Assembly (NCBI GenBank): GCA_011364905.1
Contig: RDNZ01000001.1
Location: 32,001 to 96,000 of the forward strand
Origin: Candidatus Thorarchaeota archaeon
Lineage (GTDB): Archaea > Asgardarchaeota > Thorarchaeia > Thorarchaeales > Thorarchaeaceae
DNA length: 64,000 nt
Direction: 5' to 3'
Positions within the stretch are counted from its first letter, which is position 1; the number at the start of each line of letters is the position of its first letter. The notes beneath the pieces are model-generated. The model had not been told where the DNA came from. It worked only from the letters and a program-made list of their open reading frames with translations, and made no database searches. A program made the translations under genes and the position numbers. Shown one piece after another: positions 36,212 through 40,391 of the stretch.

Positions 36212-36312
36212 ATTGAGGCCTCCTCACTAGGCACGAATACTACCAAATCGACTGGCTGATTGACTAATGATTTACCTCTATATGAATAGATGCGTTATAG
36301 TGTGAGTCATAG

Positions 36313-36449: not shown

Positions 36450-38630
36450 TTATTCTCTCTTTCGAATTACAATGACACCGACTATTACAATAACGGCTGC
36501 AATACTTCCTGCAACGATTATCGGTGTCAGAATATACGGAGGTGTATTTGTGGTAGTGCTAGTTGGTGTTGATGAAGCCGCACTAAGATGTGTCAAAACT
36601 CCTCCTTCTGCTCTATTCATCCCCCAATCCCAAGCAACCACCCATATAGTAAGATTTGAGGTGTGCTCCAAGAAGGGAACTGACACTGACCAATTATATC
36701 CGTTATAAGCCATTGGAAAGCTACGAACAACACCATCATCTACCTGAACATAGAGTGTGACATTCTCCAATCCTGCAAGATTTTCGCTAATCATCGCCCA
36801 GTAGGTGAAAGGGCCAGTCCAAAAGTCGCTTGGATTAGTACCTCGACCATATATCGACGGAGGTATGTCATCAATTGACGAAAACATCATTCTTCGAGTC
36901 CAATCTCGAGCTTTTACCAAAGCACTGTATGCTGAATGCCAGTCCATTTCATTGTAGGAATTTCTTGCAGATTCAAATGAAGCAAGAGCAGCAGATTCCG
37001 CGGCATAGGTTACGCCTCTCTCATCGGATCGAAGATTGGATTGCTCCTCAAGAAAGTTTGACCATAGAAGAGCTTCCATCTGGTCCAAATAGGTCCCCTG
37101 AACCCAGTTCTTCTCAAAAGTGGAGGTACCGTTGTGTTCAGCAAAGTATCCCATAGGTCCGTAATAGAAGTCACTTGAATAGTGCTCATGTTGCCAAGAG
37201 TGCGCAAATCCGATTGCATGCATGGTCTCATGAAGTTGAGTGGCTGATATTCCATCCTTGGGAGTCACACCATCCGGGCGATAATAACGTTCCCAAGATT
37301 TCCAGATGACTGTCTGTCCTCCTCCACCCAGTCCGGTGTACGCTCTTCCATAGACATGCATTTCCATTTGCTTCTTTATGAAGACAACTCCAAACACATT
37401 GATGTTGTCGTCATTAACCACATATGCGGGTCTCATTCCACTGTAGATAGCATTAAACATGGACCCACCATCAACAATTGTTGTTCCATCTAAGTTATCT
37501 GCGGCGTATGTCCAGAACAGGCTGTTCCAAGAAGGTTCTTCATCGATGTCTAGATATTGGACATCAACCTCCCATTGAATGAAGGGATAGAGTTCCTCAA
37601 GATGCGCCTTTTGCATCTCAGCGTTGGTCACCCATTCGAGGCTATTGACAGAGGTCCCATCAGCTACATCCATGCAAAACACCAGCACCTTCAGTCTACC
37701 AACATCAACATACTTTGCAGGCTGATGCTGATATGGGAAAAGTAGTTGGCTGATAGGGTCCCAGATGCACTCTCTCAAGTAAACATTGAGTGCATCTACA
37801 TCTGCAGGTATGTCTAAGTTGAGAGATCCCACTTTGTCCTCTAAATCTTGAGTCCAGAAATCGTAAGACGTATTGATTTCTTCGCTCCACCAAACCTTGC
37901 ACCATTTCAAGTACCACTGATGAGCACTAGGGTCCACTACATACAGATTATAGCGTCCACCGAAGAACGGATAGTCCATCGTGACATTCGGATTCAGAGC
38001 GTTGTCCCACTCCAATCTAAACCAGTCTTGATTCTGTCCCGTATCAGGATCAAGGGGGTGGTAGTTGTACCAATGTTCCAGACTGTGATCCGCGCTGTCA
38101 AACTCCGAGAAATTAACAAGATAAAGAGTGTACCCAAGATCAGGCGGACTCGTGTATGGATTCTCTTCTAGCCAATCCTCCACTGCATAGCCATCAATGG
38201 CACGACCTGCTCGAGGATAGAATATTCGTTGTGGTTCGTCGAGGTTGTCCTTCTGATATAGTAGTGCGCTCTCATCAAGGCCTGTCCCTGTTTCGCTTCC
38301 ATTTATGGAATTGTCAAGCATGACTTGGCGAAGTTCGTCGTTGTATGCAGCATCTGCATAGACGATTTGATACTCGATATTATAGGTGATTTGAGCTGCT
38401 TCTGTAGAAAAGTTCCTGATTGTTGGTAAATCCTGTAATAGTAACGGTTCATCAATTAGAGAAGGATCATAACCCACTACGATGATATTAGCTGTCCAGT
38501 TTCTCTCAATTGGTTGAGGCCCCTGACTAAGAGTAGCTTGCTTTACTGGCTGTCTGTGATTATCTTGCACACCAAAAGGAGTGGCAATCACAAGCACTAA
38601 AGCAATACCTAGGACAAGAGCACGACGCAT
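36450..38630 (-). CDS. Membrane-anchored metzincin-like zinc metalloprotease
   Basis: Signal peptide (MRRALVLG), HETMHAIGFAH = HExxHxxGxxH, downstream PMGY Met-turn, Ig-like domain, S/T linker, C-terminal TM. Confidence 0.8.
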   Translation of the reverse strand: MRRALVLGIALVLVIATPFGVQDNHRQPVKQATLSQGPQPIERNWTANIIVVGYDPSLIDEPLLLQDLPTIRNFSTEAAQITYNIEYQIVYADAAYNDELRQVMLDNSINGSETGTGLDESALLYQKDNLDEPQRIFYPRAGRAIDGYAVEDWLEENPYTSPPDLGYTLYLVNFSEFDSADHSLEHWYNYHPLDPDTGQNQDWFRLEWDNALNPNVTMDYPFFGGRYNLYVVDPSAHQWYLKWCKVWWSEEINTSYDFWTQDLEDKVGSLNLDIPADVDALNVYLRECIWDPISQLLFPYQHQPAKYVDVGRLKVLVFCMDVADGTSVNSLEWVTNAEMQKAHLEELYPFIQWEVDVQYLDIDEEPSWNSLFWTYAADNLDGTTIVDGGSMFNAIYSGMRPAYVVNDDNINVFGVVFIKKQMEMHVYGRAYTGLGGGGQTVIWKSWERYYRPDGVTPKDGISATQLHETMHAIGFAHSWQHEHYSSDFYYGPMGYFAEHNGTSTFEKNWVQGTYLDQMEALLWSNFLEEQSNLRSDERGVTYAAESAALASFESARNSYNEMDWHSAYSALVKARDWTRRMMFSSIDDIPPSIYGRGTNPSDFWTGPFTYWAMISENLAGLENVTLYVQVDDGVVRSFPMAYNGYNWSVSVPFLEHTSNLTIWVVAWDWGMNRAEGGVLTHLSAASSTPTSTTTNTPPYILTPIIVAGSIAAVIVIVGVIVIRKRE

Positions 38631-38754
38631 AGTGTTCCCTGCCTTCTTCACCATATTAACAAACTGGTTCATGTAACCGCAACCAAACCACATTTGGCGC
38701 TTAATGAATATATACGCACATATTATATTAGGAAATATGATACTATTATCCTCG

Positions 38755-38867
38755 TGCGCCGGTATCGTAATACTACATCGGTTATCCTCGATATACCCAC
38801 TCGGGTAGTCGCGCTCGTTTCCGCAGGCTAGCGCAAAGATGCATCGATCCCCAAATCGGCCGGCGCA
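38755..38867 (+). ncRNA. Candidate structured small RNA with tRNA-like acceptor stem
   Basis: 8-bp terminal stem tgcgccgg/ccggcgca with internal hairpins; TATA-like ttatatta ~30 nt upstream; T7 tract at 38888-38894. Strand not certain. Confidence 0.55.
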
Positions 38868-38954
38868 TTCTCCTCACCCATCTCTGCTTTTTTTGTCTTT
38901 CAGGTACTCTTAAATCGAAGATAAAATCCCTCGACTTTGCCTGGAGATACCTAG

Positions 38955-40391
38955 ATGACACTCCCGAAAAAGCCCTCAATAGCAGAGATACTGAATATCA
39001 AGTCTATAGCTGCAATCGGTGTGTCTGCGAATTTTGGATATTACTGGGTGCACTCATTGGCTGAGTGGAAGCATAATCTCAAAGTATGGTTCGTTTCAAG
39101 AAGCGGAGGAGAGGTCTTAGGACATAAGATTCTCACAAGTATTGACGACATTCCTGGGAAAATCGATTATGCGATAATTCGAGTCCCTTACAAGATAGTT
39201 CCCAAAACACTGAGAGAATGTTACGAGAAGGGAGCCAAAGGGGTCACCATTTTTACAAGTGGTTTTTCAGAACTCGGTACTGAAGAAGGTCGCCAGCGAG
39301 AAATAGAAATTCGAAAAATACTAGATGATACCGGTATGAGGGCTCTTGGACCTAATTGCATGGGACTTATGTATCCAAAACTTGGTATTTCTTTTCTCCC
39401 CACCGTCAAACAACTCTCAGGAAATGTTGGATTTCTCTCTCAATCTGGAGGGATTGCAATCACTACATATACTGCTGGTGTGGAGTCAGGCGTAGGTTTC
39501 AGCAAAGTCTTCAGTTTTGGAAACCAGGTCGATATTACGCCTCAAGAGATACTAAACTATCTTGCAGATGATGTTGAAACCTCAGTTATCGGAGCCTATA
39601 TCGAGGGAGCGAAGAATGGAAGGCAGATTTTGGAATCCTTGAAATACGCTGCCACCAAAAAGCCCGTTGTTGCTCTGAAAGGTGGTCGCTCATCTGAGGG
39701 GTCTCGTGCCGCTGCCACCCATACTGGCGCGCTAGCTGGAAATAGAGATGTCTGGAGTGCTGTCTTTCGCCAGGCGAATGTTCTATCTGTTGAAACAATT
39801 GAAGACATGGTCGCAACTCTGAGCATTTTCTCACTGAGTCCGATGCCAAGATCAAAGAACGTTGGTCTGATTGCAATCAGCGGTGGAACAAGCGTAGTGT
39901 ATACTGATATTTGCATCGAGAAGGGTCTCAACGTCCCTAGAACCTCAGAAGAAACCAGAGAAAAGCTTGATCCATTAATATTCGATGTGGGAACGGGATT
40001 AGGGAATCCTATTGACCTTGCAGCTGATTATTATCAAGACCAGACTGTAGAGGAAGTGATCCGTATAGCTGGAGAGGAACCGAGTTTCGACTCTCTCATT
40101 ATAGACGCAGATGTCCATAACATGTATCAGGTCGCCAATATTATGGATGCCCATGATGTGCTCGCGGACTACTGGAAGGTAATGGCGCGAGCAGGAAGAA
40201 AAGTGGTGGAGAACAAAAAGAAACCTGTTCTTGTGACAATTCCTGATGTCGCTTATCCCGAGCAGAGAAAGGTGGCATGGGATGCTTTTGTAGACCAACA
40301 CCTTCCCGTCTTCCGAAACATCAATGAAACAGTTGGCGCTCTAGATAGGGTGTACGACTACTATGAAACCAGGTATAGAAGGAAGGTTTGA
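38955..40391 (+). CDS. acdA: Acyl-CoA synthetase (NDP-forming), alpha-subunit family
   Basis: SIAAIGVS, TSGFSE, LGPNCMG, SQSGG, SFGNQVD, phospho-His motif THTGALAG, NPIDL. Confidence 0.85.
   Translation: MTLPKKPSIAEILNIKSIAAIGVSANFGYYWVHSLAEWKHNLKVWFVSRSGGEVLGHKILTSIDDIPGKIDYAIIRVPYKIVPKTLRECYEKGAKGVTIFTSGFSELGTEEGRQREIEIRKILDDTGMRALGPNCMGLMYPKLGISFLPTVKQLSGNVGFLSQSGGIAITTYTAGVESGVGFSKVFSFGNQVDITPQEILNYLADDVETSVIGAYIEGAKNGRQILESLKYAATKKPVVALKGGRSSEGSRAAATHTGALAGNRDVWSAVFRQANVLSVETIEDMVATLSIFSLSPMPRSKNVGLIAISGGTSVVYTDICIEKGLNVPRTSEETREKLDPLIFDVGTGLGNPIDLAADYYQDQTVEEVIRIAGEEPSFDSLIIDADVHNMYQVANIMDAHDVLADYWKVMARAGRKVVENKKKPVLVTIPDVAYPEQRKVAWDAFVDQHLPVFRNINETVGALDRVYDYYETRYRRKV

Follow-up and report, generated by a model that had tools for sequence, protein, structure and literature searches.

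The stretch of DNA considered here is 64,000 nucleotides (nt) from Candidatus Thorarchaeota archaeon (assembly GCA_011364905.1, contig RDNZ01000001.1, positions 32,001 to 96,000 of the forward strand), referred to below as the window and numbered from its first letter, and an element on its + strand, running from 38754 to about 38894, is on sequence comparison a stand-alone, single-copy gene that encodes a small, structured non-coding RNA of ~115-140 nt. The predicted RNA has its own TATA promoter on the + strand, ends in this genus (g1) at a T-tract, and folds into a closed multi-branch structure in which a GC-rich 8-bp terminal stem (P1) is set around a second helix (P2) and two hairpins (PA and PB). 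It represents a new RNA family which, as far as searched, is confined to one archaeal family, and there the RNA is invariably divergent from an operon encoding a membrane metzincin and giant surface proteins. The function that we favour, with a probability of about 0.38 or roughly one chance in three, is that of a regulatory RNA acting in trans by pairing with ribosome-binding sites.

The 8-bp core of P1, GCGUCGGY/RCCGACGC, is kept nearly letter for letter in 50 homologues from 13 genera, and of the 400 cells formed by its eight pairs in these 50 sequences 370 are Watson-Crick, 29 are G·U and one is A·C. The + strand is taken to be the RNA strand because the 29 G·U pairs would become C·A mismatches on the opposite strand. 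In the window the 5' strand of P1 (GUGCGCCGGU) occupies 38754-38763, of which 38756-38763 is the family-wide core, and its partner (GCCGGCGCAU) occupies 38859-38868. In an alignment of 14 sequences from the genus (A1) 98.6% of the P1 cells are paired and both sides change in 5 of the 10 pairs, with the two basal pairs covarying (U-A in 11 sequences, G-C in 3). A first-pass annotation of the window, made from the letters alone, had taken these ends for the 7-bp acceptor stem of a tRNA-like molecule followed by an unpaired discriminator base. The letters are indeed present, GCGCCGG followed by TA at 38756-38762 (one base later than claimed) and CCGGCGC at 38860-38866 followed by A38867, however the real stem is one of 8 bp across the family which lengthens to 10-11 bp in this genus, and GCGCCGG is a variant of this lineage only, the family consensus being GCGUCGG.

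In 46 of the 50 homologues a TATA-like hexamer begins 29-32 nt 5' of the G that opens GCGUCGG; the box is conserved in every genus examined, with variable sequence separating it from the stem. In the window the putative promoter is ttatatta (38723-38730), and from the TATA distance transcription is predicted to start at 38756 or 1-2 nt earlier. A T7 tract at 38888-38894, which like the TATA-like box had been correctly picked out in the first-pass annotation, is a likely archaeal terminator, and a run of at least four T within 45 nt of P1 is found in 20 of the 22 genus members as against 8 of 28 sequences from other genera. The element has a G+C content of 57% compared with 45% for the genome, its stem pair with a spacer of 50-220 nt occurs once in the 3.08-Mb assembly by pattern search, and the fold z-score of the 113-nt stretch against shuffles is -2.97 on the + strand and -3.29 on the - strand. 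No small open reading frame inside the RNA is supported, the indels of the genus alignment not being multiples of three.

The interior is the most conserved part of the RNA within the genus, and its fold was assessed both on A1, from which a covariance model (R1) was built, and on a 22-sequence alignment (A2) which was fitted to the model and is thus biased towards the structure; here and in all that follows counts over relatives are not independent, and many genomes are metagenome-assembled and incomplete. Taking P1, P2, PA and PB together, 95% of cells are paired in A1 and both sides change in 14 of the 31 pairs, the latter figure being 23 of 31 in A2. Of 500 shuffled controls none matched the covariation of A1, and controls in which the structure was slid were 27-42% paired versus 93-95% for the real structure. 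The best-supported helices are P1, PA and PB. PA (38790-38810) consists of GAUA-U-ACCC, a 4-nt pyrimidine-rich loop and GGGUAGUC, and shows changes on both sides in 4 of its 8 pairs with 14 sequences and in 7 of 8 with 22, although it is missing from two restructured species and from genus g29. PB (38811-38834) combines a stem of 7 bp with a 10-nt loop, UUUCCGCAGG (38818-38827), that is close to invariant; both sides change in 5 of its 7 pairs with 14 sequences and in all 7 with 22, and the loop sequence is preserved in 18 of 22 genus members. P2, formed by AUCGGU (38777-38782) and AUCGAU (38843-38848), is 97.6% paired in A1; it is nearly invariant in most species with consistent one-sided changes in three, and in divergent members it is swapped for other complementary pairs, GGAAU/AUUCC and GAAUC/GAUUC, with GAUUG/CAAUC in genus g29. 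The 5' segment of P2 also has alternative partners, GAUG at 38838-41 or UCGAU at 38788-92.

The remaining parts of the RNA would be unpaired. Between P1 and P2 lies a linker, J1 (38764-38776), that is variable in the genus and without supported pairing, its 3' end being a conserved AAAYUAC. P2 is followed by the genus-conserved C-rich segment UAUCCUC (38783-38789), which contains CCUC and so resembles an anti-Shine-Dalgarno sequence, and a second C-rich linker, CCCCAAAUCG (38849-38858), precedes the 3' strand of P1, with its CCCC conserved and the remainder variable in length and sequence. Beyond P1 the genus alignment reveals a conserved single-stranded 3' tail, UCUCCUCACCC (38869-38879), in which UCUCCUCAC is invariant or nearly so in 22 genus members.

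Every repeat that the first-pass annotation had listed in this interior is present in the sequence (catc/gatg, tatc/gata, taccc/gggta and gcgct/agcgc, the last with TTCC in its loop, together with tcgat/ccccaa/atcgg at 38844-38859), yet their fates as helices differ. The taccc/gggta hairpin is borne out by covariation in 4-7 of 8 pairs, and gcgct/agcgc likewise in 5-7 of 7 pairs except that its stem had been drawn too short, the real one being of 7 bp. The catc/gatg helix is compatible with the alignment (96% paired), however it is nearly invariant and competes with the better-supported P2. Two others fail: tatc/gata is 79% paired, often broken and without covariation, and the T-arm-like tcgat/atcgg, whose 5' arm is overlapped by the 3' strand of P2, is paired in 74% of cells, shows no compensatory change and is broken at two of its five pairs in 7-8 of 14 sequences.

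Two species of genus g1, at loci L028 (genome G010) and L030 (G069), carry a restructured RNA in which PA has been lost and the stem of PB extends to ~13-15 bp. Both retain P1, the PB loop (UGUCCGCAGG), the 5' ACAUCGGUUAUCCUC and the tail, and as natural variants they show which parts of the RNA can be dispensed with.

Homologues of the element were found by BLAST in 13 of 24 genus relatives, and R1 detected it in 21 of the 27 genomes of the genus. With a second model (R2) a single weak match was obtained, in genus g29 (22.5 bits), where the RNA is present in 4 of 7 genomes. The wider distribution was found through synteny: metzincin orthologues were located in all 16 genera and 30 of their upstream regions were searched with unfiltered R2 and a pattern, of which 20-21 contain, in the expected orientation, an RNA whose termini (NN-GCGUCGGY ... 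RCCGACGC) and TATA spacing are unchanged and whose 3' flank is rich in pyrimidines, bringing the total for the family to 13 of 16 genera. Genera g23 and g28 and a few species have no RNA at the metzincin locus, and in g23 and g28 pattern search gave no copy elsewhere in the genomes. A strict 16-base pattern matches 12 of 85 genomes of the family, every one at this locus. Outside the family the RNA was not found in ~315 other genomes of the phylum; the strict pattern matches two of them, both in GC-rich DNA and both probably by chance, a reversed-pattern control giving 5 matches in 400.

The sole neighbour conserved over the 13 genera is the metzincin gene (36450-38693, - strand). In all genus members the RNA lies between this divergent gene and one for an ADP-forming acyl-CoA synthetase (CoA_binding and Succ_CoA_lig domains; 38955-40391 in the window, 3' of the RNA). 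The downstream gene varies with genus: g1 and g25 have the acyl-CoA synthetase, g29 has a PAS histidine kinase, and the remaining genera have other genes. In g29 too the RNA and the metzincin orthologue (59% identity) are divergently arranged. The synthetase has a promoter, GTACTCTTAAATC (38904-38918, + strand), that is kept before its orthologues in 9 other genera with no RNA upstream, and therefore the downstream gene has its own promoter. An acyl-CoA synthetase leader was for the same reason rejected as an identity for the element. In six other genera (genomes G042, G063, G065, G089, G091 and G097) the synthetase orthologue is 14-32 kb from the metzincin on the same contig, which suggests a large insertion or inversion between RNA and synthetase in part of the family, and the RNA has therefore kept to the metzincin promoter upon rearrangement.

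The ends of the RNA hardly change between genera, whereas the interior is of 58-97 nt and unalignable. The interiors have a composition of 30% C and 18% G overall, with G down to 8% in some members, and contain 3.3 YCCC/CUCC/UCCU motifs each as against 0.16 for the complementary G-rich motifs, the C-rich motifs falling in the loops and linkers of the covariation-supported fold. Some short pieces recur, namely ACAUC(AUC) on the 5' side, a UCUCCC/UCCCC loop or linker near the 3' side and, in other genera, GAYUYC directly before the 3' stem strand. The tail in other genera is also pyrimidine-rich but of a different sequence.

Genus g29 (positions 1625-1790 of L067, from G100; also L065, L066 and L068) differs in having no T-tract after the RNA. 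Instead ~150 nt beyond the RNA are more conserved than the RNA itself and close in a T-run. This extension opens with a hairpin made by pairing of the C-rich tail CCUUACUG to CAGUGAGG, and it holds GGUGG...CCACC and ACGCGC...GCGCGU stems as well as a UUUCUGCAGG motif like the PB loop of g1; it could be part of a longer RNA or a second, related unit.

The reading that we favour starts from the genome's use of Shine-Dalgarno (SD) sequences: GGAG, GAGG and GGTG peak at -15 to -9 from starts, an SD word is found at 40% of starts versus 13% for background, and AGGAGA is the top enriched hexamer, with GAGGAG, GGTGA and GTGAG likewise enriched. The tail UCUCCUCACC is exactly complementary to these words (AGGAGA, GGUGA, GAGG), the other unpaired segments carry CCUC/UCCC, and the tail is the complement of GGUGAGGAGA, a sequence that can be assembled from the most enriched SD words of the genome; in g29 and one g22 genome the tail is able to pair in cis with a downstream SD-like segment. 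It would be envisaged that the stable stem protects and presents the unpaired C/U-rich segments (UAUCCUC, the hairpin loops, CCCC and the tail), that these pair with the purine-rich SD regions of mRNAs so as to modulate their translation or stability, and that the control region held in common with the surface-protein operon ties expression of the RNA to that of the operon.

Such a design has a parallel in the RoxS/RsaE-type small RNAs of Firmicutes, which bind G-rich target sites through C-rich regions (PMC5419742). The archaeal RNA resembles them in being a stand-alone small RNA, ~100-130 nt in size, with its own promoter and terminator and several unpaired C-rich motifs, and it is this likeness, together with the complementarity of the unpaired segments and tail to SD words, that leads us to favour a trans-acting RNA. 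There is no sequence or structural homology between the two (no Rfam match), the host is an archaeon, as its 16S match and numerous tRNAs with introns show, and the long invariant terminal stem is a feature of the RNA described here. Furthermore the UCCC motifs of RsaE are deeply conserved, whereas the interior of the archaeal RNA changes between genera. A second parallel, of position only, is with MicF, a small RNA gene divergent from the envelope-protein gene ompC: in both cases an RNA gene is divergent from a cell-surface protein gene with a common intergenic control region, but there is no homology between MicF and the archaeal RNA.

Several observations weigh against pairing with ribosome-binding sites. 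Comparison with the SD of the giant surface protein and the metzincin leader gave no specific conserved mRNA target, only generic SD complementarity; the tail can form 8-9 bp with the giant-protein SD here, but in ten other species the match is only to the generic AGGAGA. Duplexes between the RNA and metzincin 5' regions, as estimated crudely with RNAduplex, are no stronger for cognate pairs, with a mean of -47.7, than for non-cognate ones, with -46.5 (standard deviation 13.8). The sequence of the tail is conserved in g1 and g29 only, pairing seeds leave an invariant stem beside a changing interior unexplained, and the C-richness could serve protein binding or the mere avoidance of misfolding.

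An invariant stem points to a sequence-specific protein partner, and the main rival reading is that the RNA is a protein-bound scaffold or decoy in which a dedicated protein reads the stem, as Ro60 reads the stem of Y RNA, with the variable C-rich loops binding or titrating a second factor such as a KH-type poly-C binder. We regard this as possible but doubtful as a whole. It would account for a stem whose nucleotides are conserved across 50 homologues of 13 genera around an unalignable interior, and for the GAYUYC motif that recurs beside the 3' stem strand, and the layout is like that of Y and vault RNAs in its paired ends, variable pyrimidine-rich loop and, in g1, T-tract terminator. The expected proteins have not come to light, however, as TROVE/Ro60 (PF05731) is absent from 5 genomes in which positive controls were detected, and neither a Vault-repeat protein nor major vault protein was found in a search whose control was uninformative. 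No candidate partner gene is linked to the RNA, no Y_RNA or vault match was found in Rfam, and direct reading of the sequence gives no K-turn signature beside the stem.

A more specific version, that this is a ribonucleoprotein (RNP) RNA of the Asgard lineage analogous to Y and vault RNAs, with a protein reading the stem, the C-rich loop binding a second partner, the particle functionally coupled to the metzincin/giant-adhesin operon, beside which it has had a common promoter region for the whole history of the family, and alternative helices possible, seems to us unlikely. Y RNAs are of ~100 nt, with a sequence-conserved end stem, a variable pyrimidine-rich interior and an oligo-T terminator, and the archaeal RNA is like them, and like vault RNAs and YrlA, in size, in its paired conserved ends, in its variable pyrimidine-rich interior and in its oligo-T terminator. 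Its stem differs from that of Y RNAs in being without a bulged helix, its gene is fixed beside a surface-protein operon, and the five genomes mentioned above have no Ro60/TROVE gene.

An improbable alternative on much the same footing is that the element is a cis-acting or conformational switch, in which alternative helices sense a signal and control either read-through or the divergent metzincin promoter region. It is notable for this reading that the 5' segment CAUCGGU may pair with any of three conserved partners, and that a two-partner pattern is kept with other letters in divergent genus members (GGAAU with AUUUC or AUUCC), although several species do not preserve the alternative local helix and the partners are short palindromes (ATCGAT, ATGCAT), such that alternative pairing by chance is a serious possibility. 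A role in read-through would fit with most members outside g1 having no nearby T-tract and with the conserved sequence that runs on for ~150 nt in g29, but within the genus the T-tract is nearly always there, and the downstream gene is unconserved and has its own promoter where this is known. The adjacency to the metzincin promoter, fixed in 13 genera, would suit control of that region; no known riboswitch family matches in Rfam.

The tRNA reading of the first-pass annotation, that of a tRNA mimic or a derived, intron-rich tRNA(Gly), has in our view very little chance of being right. Its starting point was sound, in that the terminal stem is GC-rich and GCGCCGG/CCGGCGC followed by A, with G1-C72, C2-G71 and G3-C70 in this lineage, is as in many archaeal tRNA(Gly) genes; moreover the assembly is without several tRNAs including Gly-GCC and Gly-CCC, and ARAGORN reports introns in many of its tRNAs. 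Against this, ARAGORN finds 0 tRNA genes in the window and, with introns allowed across the genome, none at this locus, and RF00005 lists 32 tRNAs in the genome with none here even at E up to 1. The element lacks a cloverleaf, having no D-arm, no anticodon arm with a 7-nt loop and no T-loop, the proposed T-loop CCCCAA being of variable length; a stem of 8-11 bp is not that of a tRNA, and an interior conserved within the genus is the opposite of what would be expected of an intron. A search of 5 genomes for a tRNA sharing this acceptor stem gave none, the one match, in G049, being inside a coding region. More generally a search of the 64-kb window with all 4227 Rfam families gave nothing at gathering threshold, the 301-nt region around it gave only chance-level matches and no tRNA at E up to 10, and the g29 loci gave no match. 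The checks that the first-pass annotation had named, ARAGORN, Rfam, fold z-score and covariation, return no known family, a z-score of -2.97 and covariation in the fold, and of the options it had offered the one that is supported, within the reach of sequence analysis, by the fixed promoter distance, strand-specific covariation, occurrence in 13 genera and lack of an Rfam match is a new regulatory RNA.

Other known RNAs were also considered. A divergent 5S rRNA came into question as the assembly is without a 5S match, but there is no RF00001 match at the element and ordinary 5S genes are present at other loci in 9 of 9 sampled genus genomes, several of them carrying this RNA. The signal recognition particle (SRP) RNA (RF01857) and RNase P RNA (RF00373) are both at other loci in relatives that carry it. 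A repeat or mobile element was likewise rejected, the element being single copy and the strict pattern matching only this locus in the family. As a separate observation, the assembly is without detectable 5S rRNA, SRP RNA and RNase P RNA, all three of which its relatives have, and the ARAGORN output lists no tRNAs for Asn, Asp, Lys, Phe and Tyr; this is in keeping with an assembly that is 81% complete and not with a biological loss. Run with its -i option, ARAGORN further reports tRNA-Thr genes whose supposed introns measure 96 and 403 nt, and these appear to be false positives.

It is highly improbable that the inverted repeat GCGTCGGC...GCCGACGC acts only as DNA, as protein-binding sites or the decayed ends of a mobile element with no RNA function. 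Whilst an invariant repeat in a bidirectional promoter region might be read in this way, the departures from Watson-Crick pairing are by 29 to 1 G·U of a single orientation, a strand bias that DNA sites are without, the internal hairpins covary, a TATA box stands at a constant spacing suited to transcription into the element, and an element that is single-copy and syntenic is not mobile. As slim a chance is given to a mimic or chaperone of the 16S rRNA 3' end, for although the PB loop UCCGCAG complements CUGCGGA in the helix 45 3' strand of the genome's own 16S and GAUGCAUCGAUCCCC resembles GGAUGGAUCACCUCC, a 7-mer complement within a 1.5-kb rRNA is by estimate expected by chance, the loop motif is confined to g1, and the duplex energies of 18 representatives with the 3' 45 nt of 16S are no better than those of shuffled RNAs (mean z +0.26).

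The non-coding RNAs of Asgard archaea are almost unexplored, since few of these organisms have been cultured; our literature search found no paper on the small RNAs of this lineage. A family defined by its promoter, by a covariation-supported fold, by occurrence in 13 genera of one archaeal family and by a strict partnership with a surface-protein operon offers, for a lineage near the root of the eukaryotes, a concrete candidate for either post-transcriptional control or a small RNP, and the removal of a false lead means that neither an odd tRNA nor a tRNA mimic need be sought at this locus. Two puzzles are posed by it, the first being a stem whose sequence is invariant around an interior that turns over and the second a gene that is never away from the metzincin promoter.

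Finally, a number of features of the neighbouring genes deserve mention. The divergent TATA-like box of the metzincin operon, aatatatac (38707-38715, - strand), is conserved in the genus alignment and would put the start of transcription downstream of 38693, the listed start of the metzincin open reading frame. Orthologue alignments start near residue 20 and several of the longer ones cross a stop codon, and translation probably begins in fact at Met14 or Met22 (about 38654 or 38630, - strand). A near-palindromic sequence, CCAGTCGACTTGG, is conserved in the genus ~35 nt before the start of the giant surface-protein gene (within 36212-36270, - strand; L118-L124), between the metzincin stop and the AGGAGA ribosome-binding site of the giant gene, and might serve as an internal promoter or operator or else fold as an RNA hairpin. 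On the other side of the RNA the promoter-like motif of the acyl-CoA synthetase, (G)TACTCTTAAATC, which stands ~40 nt before the start of the gene at 38904-38918, is conserved in at least 10 genera (L044-L047, L054-L058), a degree of conservation that is unusual in the promoter regions of archaea, and the motif may take in a regulator site.

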